Positions 5,760-11,545 of a stretch of DNA of 64,000 bases are shown in pieces. The stretch lies in sequence record OR567511.1, one strand, 5' to 3'. The position numbers and the translations under genes were made by a program. Positions within the stretch are counted from its first letter, which is position 1. Each line of letters starts with the position of its first letter. This DNA is from Enterobacter phage vB_Ent31. The notes beneath the pieces were generated by a model, which saw only the letters and a list, made by a program, of their open reading frames with translations, ran no database searches and was not told the DNA's origin.

Positions 5760-5962
5760 TAAGAATCGACAGCACCACCCACTGGCAGATGGTCTGCAGA
5801 TGTTCATTCCCAGCGACTCGGAGGCATCAGTCTCGCCACTGGAAATATAGCGCCGTGGAGGTTATGCTTGCGACAGGGAACAACCGACTAGCGGCAATGG
5901 AAAACCATTCTCTTCTAACACGACGTCTCAACGAGGGCATACGCAAGTTTCCCTTCGAATTT

Positions 5963-6037
5963 GGTGCCGATTGCAGGAGTCGAACCCGCGGCATCTTCAT
6001 TACAAGTGAAGCGCTCTACCAGCTGAGCTAAATCGGC
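5963..6037 (-). tRNA. tRNA-Thr (anticodon UGU)
   Basis: Reverse complement GCCGATT..CTTCA-CTTGTAA-TGAAG..GCGGG-TTCGACT-CCTGC-AATCGGC folds as a cloverleaf with a 7-nt loop. T4 also encodes tRNA-Thr. Confidence 0.75.
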
Positions 6038-6039
6038 TT

Positions 6040-6135
6040 AAGACGGAAATAAGGATTCGAACCTTATGTAGTTGCACAGACGTATCTGCCGTTGAATTCC
6101 TCACTAAGTTTAAGCAACTATTCCCGGGGTCTTAA
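6040..6135 (-). ncRNA. tRNA-like element; the acceptor stem cannot be resolved
   Basis: Has a perfect T-arm (ATAAGG-TTCGAAT-CCTTAT), but no 5' strand complementary to the 3' end was found. Possibly a class II tRNA or a stable RNA like T4 species 1/2 (rnaC/rnaD). Confidence 0.3.
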
Positions 6136-6140
6136 TTTGG

Positions 6141-6222
6141 TGCATCAAGAGGGATTCGAACCCTCAATCCTTTCGGCGGAAGATTTTAAGTCTTCTGTGT
6201 ATACCAGTTCCACCATTGATGC
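6141..6222 (-). tRNA. tRNA-Leu (anticodon UAA), class II with a long variable arm
   Basis: Acceptor GCATCAA/TTGATGC with TGG (CCA) encoded. Anticodon arm GAAGA-CTTAAAA-TCTTC. T-arm GAGGG-TTCGAAT-CCCTC. T4 also has Leu(UAA). Confidence 0.6.
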
Positions 6223-6231
6223 GAAATTTGG

Positions 6232-6313
6232 AGCTAGGAGTGAGATTCGAACTCACGAAGGGATACCCGGCGGATTTGCAATCCGCTGCCTTTGGCCACT
6301 CAGCAACCCTAGC
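6232..6313 (-). tRNA. class II-type tRNA with anticodon GCA (formally Cys); atypical
   Basis: Acceptor GCTAGGG/TCCTAGC. Perfect anticodon arm GCGGA-TTGCAAA-TCCGC. 13-nt variable region. T-arm GTGAG-TTCGAAT-CTCAC. Confidence 0.45.
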
Positions 6314-6320
6314 AAATTGG

Positions 6321-6395
6321 TCGAGGTAGAGGGATTCGAACCCGTCGACCTGTGGATTAGAAGTCCACTGCTCTATCCAGCTGAGCTATACCCCG
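6321..6395 (-). tRNA. tRNA-Arg (anticodon UCU)
   Basis: Acceptor CGGGGTA/TACCTCG with CCA encoded (6318-6320). Anticodon arm GTGGA-CTTCTAA-TCCAC. T-loop TTCGAAT. Confidence 0.7.
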
Positions 6396-6396
6396 A

Positions 6397-6523
6397 GTGT
6401 GTTCAGACAGGACTCGAACCTGTAAGCATGTTCTTGCGGCGTTTTACCACCATCGTCAGCGTATGATTCAATACGCGAACTCAAAAGGTGTTGGACCCCT
6501 TGTCTACCAATTTCAGCACTGAA
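6397..6523 (-). ncRNA. ~127-nt tRNA-like stable RNA candidate
   Basis: The 3' part has a T-arm (ACAGG-TTCGAGT-CCTGT) and acceptor strand CTGAACA. Its complement TGTTCAG lies about 120 nt upstream, which is too long for a tRNA. The size matches T4 species 1/2 RNAs (rnaC/rnaD). Confidence 0.3.
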
Positions 6524-6535
6524 CAACTTTATTTA

Positions 6536-6763
6536 TTACATATCAACTTGTGTAAACCAGTTGATTTTGAAATACTCATCAAAATGAAGAGCAGGCTCAA
6601 CTTGAGTATCCTCCTCAAGAAGAATTAAATTCTTTCTTACAAGAGGGTCAAGATGAGTTGTGTTTAAGCAACTATCATGCCAATATGTAAGTACTCTATT
6701 AGATTCGGCGGTATCAACAAGATAACGAACATTCATATCAGGATGTCGGTACAGATTAATCAT
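6536..6763 (-). CDS. hypothetical protein (75 aa)
   Basis: ORF only. Confidence 0.35.
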   Translation of the reverse strand: MINLYRHPDMNVRYLVDTAESNRVLTYWHDSCLNTTHLDPLVRKNLILLEEDTQVEPALHFDEYFKINWFTQVDM

Positions 6764-6766
6764 AAT

Positions 6767-7216
6767 CTATTTCTCTTGAAGCATTTTGCGTAAACGATAG
6801 AGCTGATTACAAAATTCTTTTTCAGTCAAAACTGTTTCGGAGATTTTGTTCTTGCCCATACTGTGAGTTAATGTTGCGTTACGAGTGGCAATTAATGCTT
6901 TTTGGAATCCAGTGTTTTGAGAAAGTGCATCATATGCTCCAGTTAAAAGATTCTGGTATGCTTCAGATGCTCGATGAATAGGAACACCCTTCCAATAAAG
7001 GGTTTGAGTAGGCCACCAACGTTTCTTCTTGCCTTTGAACTTTGCTGCCTTTCCAACTAAAGTGCAAACATGAGCTTGCATTTCAGGGTTAGAAAATTTG
7101 AGGGATTGTAAGAATCCCTCCATTGATGCACATTCTACATCATCGTAAACGAAAGCATGTGGTGCAAAGTTACTTAAAGCACAAGAAGGATATGAACTTC
7201 CAGAGCCAATGTCCAT
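6767..7216 (-). CDS. NADAR / YbiA-like (DUF1768) domain protein
   Basis: The N-terminal motif ALSNFAPHAFVYDDVECASMEGFLQSLKF matches the NADAR hallmark (SNF...F.YDGV.Y.S.EH.FQA.KF). Size is 149 aa. Confidence 0.5.
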   Translation of the reverse strand: MDIGSGSSYPSCALSNFAPHAFVYDDVECASMEGFLQSLKFSNPEMQAHVCTLVGKAAKFKGKKKRWWPTQTLYWKGVPIHRASEAYQNLLTGAYDALSQNTGFQKALIATRNATLTHSMGKNKISETVLTEKEFCNQLYRLRKMLQEK

Positions 7217-7447
7217 TTAATTACCGTGAGATATTCTAGAAGGTTTCTTACCAAAATAATATTCATATGAGCCATCTAAACGACCTGCTTTAGTGCGGCA
7301 ATATGAATCCCGTTTCTTATAATGCCGCCATTCATCATTGTATCTTGGACGACGGTCAGCGATTAAAATCTCTAATGGCCAACCAGGCGCAAAGGAACGG
7401 AGCCGTTCGACTTTTCTAATGTATCTTTTCTTTAAGATTTTCTTCAT
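7217..7447 (-). CDS. small basic hypothetical protein (76 aa)
   Basis: ORF only. Lys/Arg-rich. Confidence 0.35.
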   Translation of the reverse strand: MKKILKKRYIRKVERLRSFAPGWPLEILIADRRPRYNDEWRHYKKRDSYCRTKAGRLDGSYEYYFGKKPSRISHGN

Positions 7448-7665
7448 ATAGATTCCGACATTACGTGAGTAGTTCTCTTTCTGATTGTAAATTGAGTTAA
7501 TTCATCAACTTCACCACAACGCCAAGCGTCATCTTCAGTTTCAAAACCAAGAGCCTCAAATAGGTTACCTAAACGCCAACCTTCGTCAAACTCGGGGTCT
7601 CCTGAAAAATAGTAATAGTAATCGGCAGTTACTAAATCTTGAATTACAAAATCAAACTTTTCCAT
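7444..7665 (-). CDS. hypothetical acidic protein (73 aa)
   Basis: ORF with ATGA coupling. Confidence 0.35.
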   Translation of the reverse strand: MEKFDFVIQDLVTADYYYYFSGDPEFDEGWRLGNLFEALGFETEDDAWRCGEVDELTQFTIRKRTTHVMSESI

Positions 7666-8162
7666 CAGATACTTACCACAGTAATAGCTTCAGGAGCTTT
7701 AGGAATAACGATATCTTCTTCGATGTAGAAGAGCTTAAATTTTTCAGCTACACGCATGAAGTCAGTATCATAACCAACTGGAGTTCCAATCAATTCTTGG
7801 ATTTTATCCATCACTTTATACTGAACTTGATAGAAATCTTCAAGACGAGCATCGAATTCATCTTCAGTATAATTGCCTTCTGGGATTACAAAGCCAAGCA
7901 CTTCTGAACAGAACTCTGGAGTGATTTCTTCATTTTCAACACAATATTCAAAGAAAGCATCACCGGAATAATCTTCGTTACCCATTCCATTAGGGTCTGA
8001 ATTATCAGACGCGAAACATTTCGCAACGGCACACCAACCTGAAATGTGTCTAGCATTTACATTATAAATCACATTCTCTTGATAATCATCGCCGTCGTTT
8101 TCCCATGATACACATGATACTGCATAGCCTTTAGGGATAGTTTGACCAAAGCGGAGTTCCAT
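7665..8162 (-). CDS. hypothetical acidic protein (165 aa)
   Basis: ORF only. Confidence 0.45.
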   Translation of the reverse strand: MELRFGQTIPKGYAVSCVSWENDGDDYQENVIYNVNARHISGWCAVAKCFASDNSDPNGMGNEDYSGDAFFEYCVENEEITPEFCSEVLGFVIPEGNYTEDEFDARLEDFYQVQYKVMDKIQELIGTPVGYDTDFMRVAEKFKLFYIEEDIVIPKAPEAITVVSI

Positions 8163-8172
8163 AATATTTCCT

Positions 8173-8577
8173 TCAATTAAATGGTGGAAGTGGTTTCATG
8201 TACAAATCTATCAACATACGCCATTTAGCAATTACTTCAGCATACGTATCATTGCATAAAAATCGTGTGATGTCAGAATAATCAATTGCTGGTAGCGGAG
8301 TTAAATGATTCATCAATTCGCGAGGAAATTGATTAAAGCATTTCATCATATCTTTGTAAACATAATCAAGTAAGTCTTGAACAGAGAAGAACTCAGTGTT
8401 TCGTCCTTCTTTGGAATACCGATATTTCAGAAATTTCCAATGGCCGGAGTCTCTGTCTTGAGTGAATGCGTAGTCACTATGTAACATGACATTACGAACT
8501 AAATCTTCAGAGAAGAAGATGGAGTGAGTGCAACCATAATAAATCATAATATTTTCCTCAGAATTTGGTGGCCCCAT
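8173..8577 (-). CDS. hypothetical protein (134 aa)
   Basis: ORF only. Confidence 0.45.
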   Translation of the reverse strand: MGPPNSEENIMIYYGCTHSIFFSEDLVRNVMLHSDYAFTQDRDSGHWKFLKYRYSKEGRNTEFFSVQDLLDYVYKDMMKCFNQFPRELMNHLTPLPAIDYSDITRFLCNDTYAEVIAKWRMLIDLYMKPLPPFN

Positions 8578-8641
8578 CCGGATTCGAACCGAAAACCTAC
8601 CAGTTATGAGCCGGGTGCTCTACCAATTGAGCTATAGGGCC
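8569..8641 (-). tRNA. tRNA with anticodon CAU (Met, or Ile2 if lysidine-modified as in T4 tRNA-Ile)
   Basis: Acceptor GGCCCTA/TGGGGCC with CCA encoded. D-arm GCTC-AATTGGTA-GAGC. Anticodon loop CTCATAA. T-loop TTCGAAT. Isolated between protein genes. Confidence 0.6.
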
Positions 8642-8665
8642 AAAGTCCTCCGAAGAGGACGAATG

Positions 8666-8890
8666 TTATTCAACCATGAAATCTGCTACTTCATCAAAGT
8701 CGTTATCAATAACAACAGTAAATGGCAGAGCTTCATCGCTTGTTTTGATAGTCAGCTTAACGAAGCCATCGACAGTTTCAACCAAACCTACAATTTTATC
8801 AGAACGTACTACAGCACGAGCTACGTCAACAATTTTACCAGTCAGTGCAAATGTAGCGATTTGGTTAACTTCAACAACGATACGTTTCAT
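8666..8890 (-). CDS. hypothetical protein (74 aa)
   Basis: ORF only. Confidence 0.35.
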   Translation of the reverse strand: MKRIVVEVNQIATFALTGKIVDVARAVVRSDKIVGLVETVDGFVKLTIKTSDEALPFTVVIDNDFDEVADFMVE

Positions 8891-8931
8891 TCTTTTTCCT
8901 TAGTGGTTTTGATGTAGTAATAATAACATCA

Positions 8932-9489
8932 TTATTTTAAAGCGTAATATCTGAACGGATTGATATGAAATGATAACATTGCTCTGTCATTCTTTTCAGG
9001 CTTATCAACTTCAGATTTCAGTTTCCACCCACAGTAAACTCGTAAGCAGAATTGAATTTTTCCAATTTTAAGCCAAGGCTGATATCCAAATACACCCCAA
9101 GCTGATTCATTCCACATAAGCAACCAACCGTTAGATTTACCGTTAGATTCTACAGTCGGATTGCCCTTCCATTTAAACTCTGAAGTAGCTTCTCGTCCAA
9201 GAACATAATAAGCAAAGTTATATGCTTTATTTCGCCATAGCCATGCTACGCGTTGCATATATTTTCCAACGATCGGAATTTTACGAATCTTTTCCCAGCG
9301 CTTAACATGACCGCCATCTCCGTCAATTGGATTATCAAATGTCATCATCCAATTGAATCCATATGGAAGTTTTCCGCTAACTTCATTATAGAATGGAACT
9401 ACAAATGGAGCAAGCAAAATAGCTAGCACGCCAGTAATCCAATCAAGTGGTACAAGAACAATATAACTTAAGTATTTTAGCAGTTTCAT
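8932..9489 (-). CDS. membrane protein (N-terminal TM helix); start set to MKLLKYLSY
   Basis: The longer track ORF would overlap tRNA-Phe. The internal ATG at 9489 is preceded by AAGGAG. Confidence 0.5.
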   Translation of the reverse strand: MKLLKYLSYIVLVPLDWITGVLAILLAPFVVPFYNEVSGKLPYGFNWMMTFDNPIDGDGGHVKRWEKIRKIPIVGKYMQRVAWLWRNKAYNFAYYVLGREATSEFKWKGNPTVESNGKSNGWLLMWNESAWGVFGYQPWLKIGKIQFCLRVYCGWKLKSEVDKPEKNDRAMLSFHINPFRYYALK

Positions 9490-9559
9490 AGTAGTCTCCT
9501 TTGACACTCTATTTATGCTAAAAAGCCCGAACAGATTTCTCTGCTCGGGCGTTGTTTGG

Positions 9560-9631
9560 TGGGAAGTGTTGGAATCGAACCAACCTCTCATGCTCTTCAG
9601 GCACGCGCTAATCCATCTCAGCTAACTTCCC
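9560..9631 (-). tRNA. tRNA-Phe (anticodon GAA)
   Basis: Acceptor GGGAAGT/ACTTCCC with CCA encoded. Anticodon arm CGTGC-CTGAAGA-GCATG. T-arm GTTGG-TTCGATT-CCAAC. Confidence 0.75.
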
Positions 9632-9635
9632 TTGG

Positions 9636-9709
9636 TCTCCATACGAGGATTTGAACCTCGGACCCTCTGGTCCCAAACCAGATGCTCTACCAGACTGAGC
9701 TACACGGAG
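9636..9709 (-). tRNA. tRNA-Pro (anticodon UGG)
   Basis: D-arm GCTC-AGTCTGGTA-GAGC. Anticodon arm TCTGG-TTTGGGA-CCAGA. T-arm CGAGG-TTCAAAT-CCTCG. CCA encoded. Confidence 0.7.
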
Positions 9710-9806
9710 ATATTTTTCAGGATGGACGCCACTCTACATTTATGGGTCGAGTCTCCATCATAAAACGTCACGGTCCTCGGCGATTTTCCGTGGTCTGAAA
9801 ATTTGG

Positions 9807-9878
9807 AGCATCCAGAGAGAATCGAACTCTCATCTACTGGGTGGAAGCCAGTCATAATAGCCGCTATACGATGGATGC
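9807..9878 (-). tRNA. tRNA-Gly (anticodon UCC)
   Basis: Acceptor GCATCCA/TGGATGC. Anticodon arm ACTGG-CTTCCAC-CCAGT. T-arm GAGAG-TTCGATT-CTCTC. CCA encoded. Confidence 0.7.
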
Positions 9879-9886
9879 AAATTTGG

Positions 9887-9958
9887 CAGGCCCTGAAGGA
9901 ATCGAACCCTCATCACTGGGTTTGGAGCCCAGCATAATAGCCGTTATACTAAGAACCT
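9887..9958 (-). tRNA. tRNA-Trp (anticodon CCA)
   Basis: Anticodon arm CTGGG-CTCCAAA-CCCAG. T-loop TTCGATT. Acceptor has two G-U pairs. CCA encoded. Confidence 0.65.
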
Positions 9959-9967
9959 GTTATTTGG

Positions 9968-10040
9968 TGGGAGTAACTGGACTCGAACCAGTCACCGCTC
10001 GATTATCGGTCGAGAGCTCTACCAAATGAGATATACTCCC
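9968..10040 (-). tRNA. tRNA-Ile (anticodon GAU), copy 1
   Basis: Acceptor GGGAGTA/TACTCCC. Anticodon arm CTCGA-CCGATAA-TCGAG. T-arm ACTGG-TTCGAGT-CCAGT. CCA encoded. Confidence 0.7.
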
Positions 10041-10109
10041 ATGGAAAGCTAATCATCTAATTGTTGATGTACCACTGCTATGGACAGTGTTTAACTTTCA
10101 TAAATTTGG

Positions 10110-10191
10110 CGGAGAGTAAAGGAGTTGAACCCTCACCGTTTCCGATGGCCCGGATTTCAAGTCCGGTTTGCTACCACTAGCGCTACTCTCC
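10110..10191 (-). tRNA. tRNA-Ser (anticodon UGA), class II
   Basis: Acceptor GGAGAGT/ACTCTCC. Anticodon arm CCGGA-CTTGAAA-TCCGG. 16-nt variable arm. T-loop TTCAACT. CCA encoded. T4 has Ser(UGA). Confidence 0.7.
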
Positions 10192-10197
10192 AGTATT

Positions 10198-10283
10198 TGG
10201 TGAAGGAAGTGTCATATAGACACAATTCGCTTAGCGACAGCCACAGCGTTTTGCGGGCCGTGTATTTTTCCACCATTCCTTCA
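10198..10283 (-). ncRNA. tRNA-like element with a perfect acceptor stem and CCA, but no canonical T-loop
   Basis: Reverse complement is TGAAGGA...GTGTC-TATATGA-GACAC-TTCCTTCA-CCA. The 7-bp acceptor is perfect, CCA is encoded, and it is about 86 nt long. The T-loop is TATATGA instead of TTCRAAT. Confidence 0.3.
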
Positions 10284-10290
10284 TTGTTGG

Positions 10291-10363
10291 GGTGACCGGA
10301 CGGATTTGAACCGTCGACGGCAGCAATCACAATGCTGAGTTCTACCAACTGAACTACGGCCAC
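10291..10363 (-). tRNA. tRNA-His (anticodon GUG)
   Basis: Anticodon arm TCAGC-ATTGTGA-TTGCTG. T-arm GACGG-TTCAAAT-CCGTC. Acceptor GTGGCCG/CGGTCAC. CCA encoded. Confidence 0.65.
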
Positions 10364-10458
10364 ATCAATATTCACTCCATCATGAGGACTTCATACGAAA
10401 TTAAGAGAAGAATGATTAGTTCAACCCCTGTAGACGCGTTGAATGAATATTAATTTGG

Positions 10459-10530
10459 CTGGACTATCTGGATTCGAACCAGAGATACCGGAGTCAAAGG
10501 CCGGTGACTTAACCGCTTGTCTATAGTCCA
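10459..10530 (-). tRNA. tRNA-Gln (anticodon UUG)
   Basis: Acceptor TGGACTA/TAGTCCA. Anticodon arm CCGGC-CTTTGAC-TCCGG. T-arm TCTGG-TTCGAAT-CCAGA. CCA encoded. Confidence 0.6.
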
Positions 10531-10539
10531 ATTGTTTGG

Positions 10540-10613
10540 AGGCGGGTGATGGACTCGAACCATCGCGTAACGGGATATGAACCCGTCATTCTACCAACTG
10601 AAGTTAACCCGCA
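10540..10613 (-). tRNA. tRNA-Met (anticodon CAU) with initiator-like features
   Basis: Anticodon arm ACGGG-TTCATAT-CCCGT has three G-C pairs next to the loop. Positions 1-72 are mismatched (T opposite C). T-arm GATGG-TTCGAGT-CCATC. CCA encoded. Confidence 0.6.
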
Positions 10614-10773
10614 TTTATCCGGGTTCTTGAAGTACTAACAAGTAGCTTGATGTAGAACACGCTAAAGATATAATCTTCCGAATATAGAGCTTATCCCGTG
10701 GGAACAAACAGCTTCGTCCTCGGCATTATCTTATAGGACTCAAACTCATCTTCAAGAACTGCCTCATATTTGG

Positions 10774-10847
10774 CAGTGCTGACGGGTTTCGAACCCGCGA
10801 TCTCTCCCGTGACAGGGGAGTGTCTTGACCATCTCGACTACAGCACT
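10774..10847 (-). tRNA. tRNA-Asp (anticodon GUC)
   Basis: Acceptor AGTGCTG/CAGCACT. Anticodon arm CTCCC-CTGTCAC-GGGAG. T-arm GCGGG-TTCGAAA-CCCGT. CCA encoded. Confidence 0.75.
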
Positions 10848-11096
10848 ATAAATTTACTTTCGTGAGTATGGGATTACCCTCAAGCCTTCCGGAAAGCTGA
10901 ATAGGCGTTATTGGCTCTCATATACCCGTGCACAGATATAATCTTCATTAACACAATAACTTCATCAATATACTCCGAAAGTAAACTTTCGGCGCCGTAT
11001 TTAATTTGAGCTATGTGGTTATCGTTGAGGGAACTCATAGTCAGGGATTAAAGTGCCGACGACTTTGTCAGAACGTCTTCCAACTTCTATATTTGG

Positions 11097-11178
11097 CGGG
11101 TCGTGCAGGTATCGAACCTGCCTAGTCATTTCTGACACGGATTAACAGTCCGCCGCTTACCCTCTCAGCCAACGACCC
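11097..11178 (-). tRNA. class II-type tRNA with anticodon GUU (formally Asn); atypical
   Basis: Acceptor GGGTCGT/ACGACCC. D-stem 3 bp. Anticodon arm GCGGA-CTGTTAA-TCCGT. 15-nt variable arm with stem GTCA/TGAC. T-arm GCAGG-TTCGATA-CCTGC. CCA encoded. Confidence 0.5.
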
Positions 11179-11186
11179 TAAATTTG

Positions 11187-11259
11187 GTTCTCCGTAAGAG
11201 AATTGAACTCTTCTTTCCGACGTGAAAGGTCGGCGTCCTAACCGATAGACGAACGGAGA
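11187..11259 (-). tRNA. tRNA-Glu (anticodon UUC)
   Basis: Acceptor TCTCCGT/ACGGAGA. Anticodon arm CCGAC-CTTTCAC-GTCGG. T-arm AAGAG-TTCAATT-CTCTT. CCA encoded. Confidence 0.75.
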
Positions 11260-11263
11260 TTGG

Positions 11264-11337
11264 TAGGACACGAAAGATTCGAACTTTCGACACCCGGATT
11301 AAAAGTCCGGTGCTCTAACCAGCTGAGCTAGTGTCCT
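11264..11337 (-). tRNA. tRNA-Lys (anticodon UUU)
   Basis: Acceptor AGGACAC/GTGTCCT. Anticodon arm CCGGA-CTTTTAA-TCCGG. T-arm GAAAG-TTCGAAT-CTTTC. CCA encoded. Confidence 0.75.
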
Positions 11338-11378
11338 GTAGATATTTATAATATCAAAAATATCTTTAAGCAAATTGG

Positions 11379-11451
11379 TGGGAATAACTGGACTCGAACC
11401 AGTGACCTAACGATTATCGGTCGTTTGCTCTACCAACTGAGCTATATTCCC
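11379..11451 (-). tRNA. tRNA-Ile (anticodon GAU), copy 2
   Basis: Acceptor GGGAATA/TATTCCC. Anticodon arm AACGA-CCGATAA-TCGTT. T-arm ACTGG-TTCGAGT-CCAGT. CCA encoded. Confidence 0.7.
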
Positions 11452-11460
11452 GGAATTTGG

Positions 11461-11545
11461 TGGGGAGTGATGGAGTCGAACCACCCGAGTCGCAATGACA
11501 ACAGATTTACAGTCTGCACCGCTACCTCTACGGAATTAACTCCCC
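11461..11545 (-). tRNA. tRNA-Tyr (anticodon GUA), class II
   Basis: Acceptor GGGGAGT/ACTCCCC. Anticodon arm GCAGA-CTGTAAA-TCTGT. Long variable arm. T-arm GGTGG-TTCGACT-CCATC. CCA encoded. Confidence 0.75.

Follow-up and report, generated by a model that had tools for sequence, protein, structure and literature searches.

Long-arm tRNA-Cys and tRNA-Asn genes of a T4-like Enterobacter phage: probable elongator tRNAs with a tyrosine-type extra arm

Background

Textbooks and reviews confine long variable arms to the tRNAs for serine, leucine, selenocysteine (Sec) and, in bacteria, tyrosine, and put tRNA-Cys in class I (PMC4810241, PMC7609411). Two tRNA genes in a stretch of 64,000 nucleotides of Enterobacter phage vB_Ent31 (sequence record OR567511.1; the whole stretch is called the window below) combine such an arm with the anticodons GCA (Cys) and GUU (Asn). 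Which amino acids do these tRNAs carry, and what is the arm for? An earlier note, made from the letters alone, had described 13-15-nt class II-type variable arms at 6232-6313 and 11097-11178 and had suggested either suppressor or recoding tRNAs or degenerate derivatives of Ser or Tyr tRNAs. We infer from the analysis presented here that both genes are probably functional elongator tRNAs, charged cognately with Cys and Asn, that bear an extra arm of the tRNA-Tyr type; their expression, charging and origin are predicted from sequence comparison.

Structure of the two tRNAs

The genes lie in a tRNA region that matches Karamvirus phages (Straboviridae, T4-like), with 99% identity to Enterobacter phage EnC07 and 92-98% to PG7 and others. 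ARAGORN calls them tRNA-Cys(gca) and tRNA-Asn(gtt), and the Rfam tRNA model finds them exactly at 6232-6313 (48.0 bits) and 11097-11178 (49.8 bits; gathering score 29). Together with our parsing of the sequences, these calls bear out the long arms first noted:

6229..6313, minus strand: tRNA-Cys(GCA), 85 nt, with encoded CCA and extra arm (ARAGORN, Rfam)
6277..6279, minus strand: GCA anticodon of the long tRNA-Cys (sequence reading)
6257..6269, minus strand: extra (variable) arm of tRNA-Cys, C-GGG-UAU-CCC-UUC
11094..11178, minus strand: tRNA-Asn(GUU), 85 nt, with encoded CCA and extra arm (ARAGORN, Rfam)
11144..11146, minus strand: GUU anticodon of the long tRNA-Asn (sequence reading)
11122..11136, minus strand: extra arm of tRNA-Asn, GUCA-GAAA-UGAC-UAG, with covariation among 25 distinct relatives

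Both tRNAs have a 7/5 acceptor/T branch, a 3-bp D stem and a 5-bp anticodon stem. In tRNA-Cys, the acceptor stem GCUAGGG/UCCUAGC is followed by UU at positions 8-9 and carries discriminator U73; the D arm GCU-GAGUGGCCAAA-GGC precedes A26, the anticodon arm is GCGGA-UUGCAAA-UCCGC, the 13-nt variable region CGGGUAUCCCUUC forms a 3-bp stem (GGG/CCC) with three unpaired 3' bases (UUC), and the T arm is GUGAG-UUCGAAU-CUCAC. The corresponding parts of tRNA-Asn are the acceptor stem GGGUCGU/ACGACCC (G1:C72, G2:C71, discriminator G73) followed by UG, the D arm GCU-GAGAGGGUA-AGC followed by G, the anticodon arm GCGGA-CUGUUAA-UCCGU, the 15-nt variable region GUCAGAAAUGACUAG, which forms a 4-bp stem (GUCA/UGAC) closed by the GNRA tetraloop GAAA and followed by three unpaired 3' bases (UAG), and the T arm GCAGG-UUCGAUA-CCUGC. 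The parsed cloverleaves thus confirm 7-nt loops that read GCA and GUU with U33 and a purine, A37, on either side. A 4-5-nt class I variable loop is absent from both tRNAs, which have the 13- and 15-nt arms instead.

Every stem pair is standard, without a single mismatch, and the cloverleaf energies are -26.7 kcal/mol for tRNA-Cys and -30.9 kcal/mol for tRNA-Asn. U8, A14, G18G19, the T loop, U33 and A37 are present in both. The single-sequence minimum-energy fold of tRNA-Asn (-34.0) has a different central fold and is not the cloverleaf. We did not take this fold to point to an alternative anticodon, as covariation backs the cloverleaf with GUU, which lies within 3 kcal/mol; a fold placing another triplet at 34-36, named in the earlier note as grounds for refutation, is therefore outweighed.

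A possibility to be weighed at this point is that the genes are decaying or non-functional Ser or Tyr tRNA derivatives that tRNA finders call by chance. Their Rfam scores of 48-50 bits lie under those of most neighbouring tRNAs (55-74 bits), and annotation of the long tRNA-Asn is uneven: it is 'tRNA-Asx' in PG7 (NC_023561) and 'tRNA-Cys' in KpnM6E1 (MT580897), whose gene is 97.6% identical to that of the window. A lower score is expected, however, because the extra arm sits in the insert state of the 71-position model, and relatives label the genes tRNA-Cys and tRNA-Asn, not pseudo-tRNAs. The intact stems, the full set of conserved positions and the encoded CCA also speak against decay, as do the 18 phage records in which tRNA-Cys is 100% identical and the diverged copies, which keep every helix by compensatory changes. 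We regard decay as very improbable indeed.

The extra arm as a conserved helix

The extra arm is a real, conserved helix with compensatory changes. We assessed covariation in 25 distinct long tRNA-Asn sequences with a 15-nt arm, which align gap-free from the anticodon arm to the T arm. In the arm helix, formed by columns 18-21 and 26-29, the three inner pairs are intact in 100%, 100% and 96% of these sequences and occur as 3, 4 and 4 standard pair types. Over the whole structure, 96% of cells are paired, compared with 30-42% when the 3' partner is slid; the helix register was read off the sequences, which makes this control somewhat favourable to the tRNA-Asn arm. The covariation score is 0.555 against 0.136 for shuffled alignments, and none of 500 shuffles reached 0.555.

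Arm hairpins of at least 3 bp are found in 86% of long tRNA-Asn, compared with 57% of shuffled arms, and in 25/26 (96%) of viral long tRNA-Cys, compared with 53%. The loops are mostly GNRA, with GAAA in 35/81 long tRNA-Asn and 10/26 long tRNA-Cys. From Karamvirus to Escherichia phage EcS1, the tRNA-Cys arm changes from GGG/CCC to AGC/GCU, so that all three pairs are replaced while UUC is kept; in the anticodon stem of the same tRNA two pairs are altered, and all changes are compensated.

Arm type

We compared the arms of both families with those of phage tRNA-Ser and tRNA-Tyr (stem values are means):

Phage tRNA-Ser (n = 85): median arm 18 nt; stem 5.5 bp; 0-1 unpaired 3' bases (69/85); G2:C71 in 85/85
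Phage tRNA-Tyr (n = 42): median arm 14 nt; stem 3.0 bp; mostly 3 unpaired 3' bases; G2:C71 in 32/42
Long tRNA-Asn (n = 75): median arm 15 nt; stem 3.4 bp; mostly 3-4 unpaired 3' bases; G2:C71 in 31/75
Long tRNA-Cys (n = 26): median arm 14 nt; stem 3.5 bp; mostly 3 unpaired 3' bases; G2:C71 in 8/26

The extra arm is of the tRNA-Tyr type, not the tRNA-Ser type. The window arms have stems of 3 bp (Cys) and 4 bp (Asn) with three unpaired 3' bases each, unlike a Ser-type arm, and share with tRNA-Tyr the short class II arm of about 3 bp, the roughly three unpaired 3' bases and the 3-bp D stem. Across both long-arm families, the likeness to bacterial tRNA-Tyr extends to arm length, stem length and the number of unpaired 3' bases; the difference lies in GUA and an invariant A73, as opposed to GCA or GUU and U73 or G73 here.

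Identity elements and the charging enzyme

According to PMC9976931, the major determinants of cysteinyl-tRNA synthetase (CysRS) are U73 and GCA, together with G15:G48, which is strong in E. coli and conserved in few bacteria. Asparaginyl-tRNA synthetase (AsnRS) recognizes the anticodon and G73, which can be transplanted into tRNA-Lys; for tyrosyl-tRNA synthetase (TyrRS), A73 and U35 are critical (PMC9976931). Seryl-tRNA synthetase (SerRS) reads the variable arm and ignores the anticodon; bacterial tRNA-Ser invariably have G1:C72 and G2:C71, and G73 is a moderate determinant (PMC9976931).

Our search patterns left the discriminator base unconstrained. U73 was nonetheless found in 26/26 viral long tRNA-Cys and, among the matches listed, in 95/95 bacterial ones, and G73 in 75/75 well-formed long tRNA-Asn; in a contrast set, A73 was found in 42/42 phage tRNA-Tyr and 78/78 tRNA-Leu. 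In all well-formed long forms, the discriminator tracks the anticodon and not the body. The window tRNA-Cys has the GCA loop and U73 that CysRS recognizes, and the window tRNA-Asn the GUU and G73 that AsnRS recognizes. Inspection of identity elements, a check proposed in the earlier note, therefore matches both discriminators to the anticodons' own enzymes and finds an arm geometry that is Tyr-like. Neither tRNA has A73 with U35 in GUA (tRNA-Cys has U73 and C35, tRNA-Asn has G73 and U36); since A73 and U35 are critical TyrRS determinants (PMC9976931), the window tRNAs should not be tyrosylated.

E. coli cysT and asnT resemble the window tRNAs in their anticodon arms, their discriminators and the codons they read. 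The anticodon arm of tRNA-Asn equals that of asnT at 17/17 positions and that of tRNA-Cys equals that of cysT at 16/17, including an identical loop, UUGCAAA. The E. coli tRNAs differ in having a 4-5-nt variable region as opposed to a 13-15 nt hairpin, and in their acceptor stems.

Several observations weigh against parts of the favoured reading. The window tRNA-Cys has G15:C48 and not the G15:G48 of cysT, so its cysteinylation could be inefficient; C48 is found in 19/26 viral and, among the matches listed, 91/95 bacterial long tRNA-Cys. The window tRNA-Asn, with G1:C72, G2:C71, C11:G24, G73 and a long arm, holds much of the E. coli serine set, and its first pair differs from the U1:A72 of asnT and of 58/75 other long tRNA-Asn. 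AsnRS is a class II enzyme that approaches its tRNA from the side of the variable region, and cognate charging assumes that it would tolerate the arm. Profile hidden Markov models of the D arm, trained on phage tRNAs for Ser, Leu and Tyr and on class I phage tRNAs, assign neither family to a single Tyr ancestor. Finally, our scans of IMG/VR and of genomes hold the anticodon arm and a stretch of the T arm constant, and thus sample only relatives that share these and give no unbiased frequency.

Codon meaning and the exchange of tRNA-Asn

We aligned 13 window proteins (gp5, 6, 7, 10, 17, 18, 20, 23, 24, UvsW, 27, 29 and 48) with their T4 orthologues, over 7393 positions at 71% identity. T4 is not known to encode a tRNA for Asn or Cys. 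AAY codons stand opposite T4 Asn at 285 of 462 sites, followed by Asp (41), Ser (24), Lys (22) and Thr (19), which is an ordinary substitution spectrum. UGY codons stand opposite T4 Cys at 34 of 43 sites, with Tyr and Ser never among the top partners. Cys makes up 0.6% and Asn 6.2% of codons in these 13 late proteins.

The closest relative provides a natural exchange. EnC07 and the window are collinear and about 98.7% identical outside one segment:

10831..11338, minus strand: exchangeable cassette of a 52-aa open reading frame (ORF), the long tRNA-Asn, tRNA-Glu and tRNA-Lys (blastn against EnC07)

In its place EnC07 has a 1048-bp segment (L001 5435-6482) with a 76-nt class I tRNA-Asn and a 138-aa ORF that has no Pfam match. 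Because EnC07 is nearly identical to the window and carries the class I tRNA, the class I and long forms of tRNA-Asn are interchangeable, which fits equivalent decoding and argues against reassignment. AAY and UGY keep their ordinary meaning, and recoding is unsupported. Neither long tRNA has a stop anticodon, both being sense, and this, with the behaviour of AAY and UGY and the fit of the discriminators to CysRS and AsnRS, sets aside the earlier idea of suppressor or recoding tRNAs.

The class I tRNA-Asn of EnC07 is itself unusual. Its anticodon loop, CCGUUAA, has C32 and C33, as opposed to the near-universal U33, and it is rare, with about five phage records at at least 95% identity.

These data also bear on charging by the body, in which SerRS would put Ser on both tRNAs, alone or beside the cognate enzyme, and bring about a programmed mistranslation of Asn or Cys codons as Ser, an effect suggested earlier for allo-tRNAs and for nematode tRNAs of class II shape. 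In E. coli, allo-tRNAs that have sense anticodons incorporate Ser or Ala (PMC5389517), and the serine-like elements of the window tRNA-Asn (G1:C72, G2:C71, G73 and the long arm) point the same way; the window tRNA-Cys has C2:G71 and U73. The arm geometry is Tyr-like, however, and G2:C71 is unconserved in both families. All long tRNA-Cys have U73; most long tRNA-Asn keep the U1:A72 of bacterial tRNA-Asn (58/75), and in every well-formed sequence the discriminator is the one expected by the enzyme cognate to the anticodon. Asn and Cys codon usage is normal, and Ser occupies just 24 of the 462 AAY-aligned sites. The conversion of tRNA-Tyr into a SerRS substrate (Himeno, 1990) reportedly took a longer arm as well as G73. 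We consider programmed serylation improbable; some serylation of the window tRNA-Asn is conceivable, given the nominal serine elements in its sequence.

Distribution in phages and bacteria

The long tRNA-Cys matches 34 phage records, among them the 18 identical ones; all are Karamvirus apart from EcS1, and every phage record that annotates the gene labels it tRNA-Cys. The long tRNA-Asn has matches in 634 phage records, of which 548 span 80% or more of its length, from Karamvirus, Klebsiella and Raoultella T4-like phages, Serratia phage X20 and the T5-like Demerecviridae (phages of Salmonella, Escherichia and Shigella). In the T5-like phage Spc35, tRNA-Asn is 83 nt long, has the arm GUC-GAAA-GAC-AAC and adjoins a class I tRNA-Cys. 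T5 itself was rejected as a carrier, its tRNA-Asn being a 78-nt class I tRNA (AY543070 33952-34029). Class I and long tRNA-Asn thus alternate at an equivalent place between T5 and many T5-like phages, as they do in Karamvirus. According to the T5 record (AY543070), anticodon replacement failed to turn its tRNA-Asn or tRNA-Cys into amber suppressors.

A BLAST search of 5426 E. coli genomes returned no full-length relative of either long tRNA, which indicates that the host is not the source of these genes. The best that it returned was a weak match of tRNA-Cys to tyrT/V (E = 0.02) and a match of tRNA-Asn to the T arm of tRNA-Lys only.

To sample viral diversity, we scanned IMG/VR with patterns made up of the anticodon arm, a long spacer and the first part of the T arm, and obtained 105 loci for Asn and 32 for Cys. 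In these loci ARAGORN recognized long tRNA-Asn of 80 distinct sequences and long tRNA-Cys of 27, whose acceptor, D and arm sequences are very diverse. Scans with class I spacing gave at least 120 loci each, which makes the long forms a minority and their share an upper bound. In the same database, 8 of 15 distinct tRNA-Ile(UAU) have variable regions of 21-26 nt with a common CAGAUUA or AGAUAAU-like motif (L012, L015, L016, L018, L019, L035, L072 and L084). tRNA-Thr(UGU) (7/40) and tRNA-Trp(CCA) (4/45) also include long-armed members, and many other class I anticodons have one each. Class I tRNAs with a class II shape may be widespread among phages in general.

The long tRNA-Cys pattern gave at least 120 loci when applied to one genome per bacterial species, and the matches listed were nearly all on Phycisphaerae/Planctomycetota chromosomes. 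They include at least 95 distinct tRNA-Cys(GCA) of 81-88 nt with an arm hairpin (loops GCAA, GAAA or GUAA) and U73. The examples come from metagenome-assembled genomes (loci L140-L259, e.g., L149 6210-6251 and L218 922-963). The Phycisphaerae genes are solitary, lack an encoded CCA and adjoin housekeeping genes (glutamine synthetase GlnA, LpxI). As they are chromosomal and stand beside housekeeping genes, we take the long-arm tRNA-Cys to be native to a bacterial class.

Origin of the long tRNAs

GCA and GUU are each one substitution away from GUA (Tyr) and from GCU (Ser), the G34 class II anticodons between them. For the window tRNA-Cys, the closest likeness is to tRNA-Tyr. It aligns gap-free with E. 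coli tyrT/V at 72.9% identity; both are 85 nt long, with a 7/5 branch and a 3-bp D stem, and have in common U8-U9, the whole D loop GAGUGGCCAAA, A26 and the T loop. The 13-nt arm has the same layout in both, C-NNN-NNN-NNN-UUC (C-GUC-AUC-GAC-UUC in E. coli tRNA-Tyr), that is, one unpaired base, 3 bp, a 3-nt loop, 3 bp and UUC. Among about 1500 phage tRNAs and the E. coli references, its nearest neighbour outside the long tRNA-Cys is a tRNA-Tyr. The likeliest history would be that the window tRNA-Cys is a remoulded enterobacterial-type tRNA-Tyr that changed by GUA to GCA (U35C) and A73U. Of the earlier suggestion of degenerate Ser or Tyr derivatives, descent from tRNA-Tyr thus retains some support, from the arm geometry and from the closeness of tRNA-Cys to E. 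coli tRNA-Tyr, while degeneracy does not fit the conservation and the compensatory changes.

A likely Tyr-type origin applies to the arm geometry and to the window tRNA-Cys; expansion of a class I loop in place stands as an alternative. The D-arm profiles score poorly and differ in which models come out best (Cys-short, Thr and His for tRNA-Asn; Ser and Cys-short for tRNA-Cys), and a D arm resembling that of class II is already present in class I phage tRNA-Cys; both points count against a single Tyr origin. On two Phycisphaerae contigs (L220 and L242) a long tRNA-Cys occurs together with a 74-nt class I paralogue whose body is nearly identical. The fact that these paralogues differ mainly by the arm suggests that it was gained or lost in place.

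Comparison with known systems

Bacterial tRNA-Tyr comes nearest in shape; in concept, the nearest are selC* tRNA-Cys, allo-tRNAs and the class II-shaped tRNAs of nematodes. The selC* tRNA-Cys are a precedent for a long arm with U73 and GCA, and are counted as CysRS substrates (PMC5389517, PMC7609411); on this precedent, an extra arm need not exclude cysteinylation. They and the allo-tRNAs differ in their 8/4 or 9/3 branches, long Sec-like D stems and 6-bp anticodon stems (PMC5389517, PMC7609411). Some have a dedicated SelB* or CysRS*, and SerRS is predicted to charge the allo-tRNAs (Mukai et al. 2017, PMC5389517). In the window tRNAs, by contrast, the branch is the canonical 7/5, the anticodon stem has 5 bp and the arm is short and of Tyr type; no dedicated factor lies near their genes.

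The nev- and nov-tRNAs of nematodes and other eukaryotes are reported to be charged according to their body, with Leu or Ser. As cited in PMC4810241 and PMC5389517, they likewise join a class II body to class I anticodons, but are eukaryotic and have Gly, Ile, Val, Pro or Arg anticodons. In vivo they appear to be non-functional, according to PMC4810241. In the window tRNAs, the discriminators instead match the synthetase that belongs to the anticodon, and the genes have been kept in hundreds of phages.

Long-arm tRNA-Asn and tRNA-Cys are missing from a 2020 review of non-canonical tRNAs (PMC7609411), and we found no description of those of phages or Phycisphaerae in the searchable literature, a scope that leaves most subscription journals outside. 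The structural type is widespread and apparently under-described, with the genes themselves deposited and labelled in hundreds of GenBank records.

Possible roles of the extra arm

Under the reading that we favour, tRNA-Cys would read UGY and be charged by the host CysRS, and tRNA-Asn would read AAY and be charged by the host AsnRS. Their class II-shaped bodies, with a 3-bp D stem and a short Tyr-type hairpin, would present a shape familiar to EF-Tu and the ribosome from the tRNAs for Ser, Leu and Tyr. The two widespread long-arm families would travel among phages as cassettes in tRNA arrays and be swappable with class I versions. The extra arm can simply be tolerated, as the Phycisphaerae case argues.

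The arm might alternatively be an adaptive shield. It would leave intact the recognition of anticodon and acceptor by CysRS and AsnRS, but a tRNA-targeting defence, a competitor's nuclease or a phage-induced attack on host tRNA would act poorly on the phage tRNAs, so that Asn and Cys decoding would be kept when the host isoacceptors are destroyed. This idea is compatible with cognate charging and competes with the view of the arm as a tolerated relic. Phage tRNAs are known to counter tRNA-cleaving defences: T5 tRNA-Lys escapes PARIS AriB, which cuts at 40/41 beside the variable region, through changes in the anticodon stem, and T5 tRNA-Tyr acts against a retron toxin (PMC11464382). In the window tRNAs the anticodon arms are host-identical, which means that the usual anticodon-loop escape is unused and that the arm and the acceptor stem are the sole gross differences from the host. 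At the same locus, EnC07 has another tRNA-Asn that is not host-like (C32, C33); long arms recur across many phage lineages; and with Cys at only 0.6% of codons, codon supply alone is a weak reason for a tRNA-Cys. However, we identified no nuclease that is specific for tRNA-Asn or tRNA-Cys and reads the variable region. The same architecture is native to free-living Phycisphaerae, where a phage-defence rationale is not obvious, and class I versions replace long ones in close relatives (EnC07 compared with the window, T5 compared with Spc35). We therefore consider a shield unlikely. Equally doubtful is its broader form, in which arm grafting would be a recurrent phage strategy that hides tRNAs from immunity systems or toxins inspecting the variable-region side and so provides a second escape route beside anticodon-loop mutation; on that view, AsnRS and CysRS would tolerate class II bodies and the class I/II split would not be set by the synthetases.

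Implications

Canonical 7/5 Asn and Cys tRNAs with a Tyr-type arm are common in well-studied T4-like and T5-like phages, and the long tRNA-Cys type appears fixed in a whole bacterial class. If charging is cognate, CysRS and AsnRS would accept class II bodies in nature, and tRNA genes would be able to cross the class boundary by single anticodon and discriminator changes. The same tRNAs would then offer natural scaffolds with an addressable extra hairpin for tRNA engineering. Should the arm protect against tRNA-cleaving defences, it would constitute a new mechanism in the phage-host conflict over tRNA. On the practical side, annotation pipelines mislabel the long tRNA-Asn, as the 'tRNA-Asx' and tRNA-Cys labels show.

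The surrounding tRNA array

Two further features complete the region:

5962..11545, minus strand: tRNA gene region, 20 tRNA genes among small ORFs (ARAGORN, Rfam)
11458..11545, minus strand: tRNA-Tyr(GUA), a genuine class II tRNA (Rfam 39.1 bits; annotated as tRNA-Tyr in EnC07 and PG7)

ARAGORN finds 19 tRNA genes on the minus strand at 5962-11451, and Rfam adds the twentieth at 11461-11545. This is the tRNA-Tyr(GUA), which ARAGORN overlooks, seemingly owing to its odd D arm. Its variable arm, UGUCAUUGCGACUCG, has 14/15 identity with the tRNA-Tyr arm of Spc35, and T4-like and T5-like phages appear on this account to share tRNA modules.

Pfam matched two ORFs of the region, 8932-9591 (minus strand; DUF7338, 223 bits) and 6767-7216 (minus strand; gp30.3, 195 bits), and none of the remaining small ones; no synthetase, nuclease or modification enzyme was found by Pfam among the ORFs of the tRNA region and of the EnC07 cassette. 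Rfam matches to 'Plastid-ycf2 5'UTR' on the plus strand at window 5964-11451 (21.8-40.2 bits, under the gathering score of 65.7) coincide with the antisense of tRNA genes, and we rejected them as artefacts of tRNA-like sequence in that model. The array also holds two tRNA(CAU) and two tRNA-Ile(GAU) genes (8566-8641, 10537-10613, 9965-10040 and 11376-11451, all minus strand). One of the CAU tRNAs may be an initiator or a lysidine-dependent tRNA-Ile2, and the two copies of tRNA-Ile(GAU) are about 83-87% alike.

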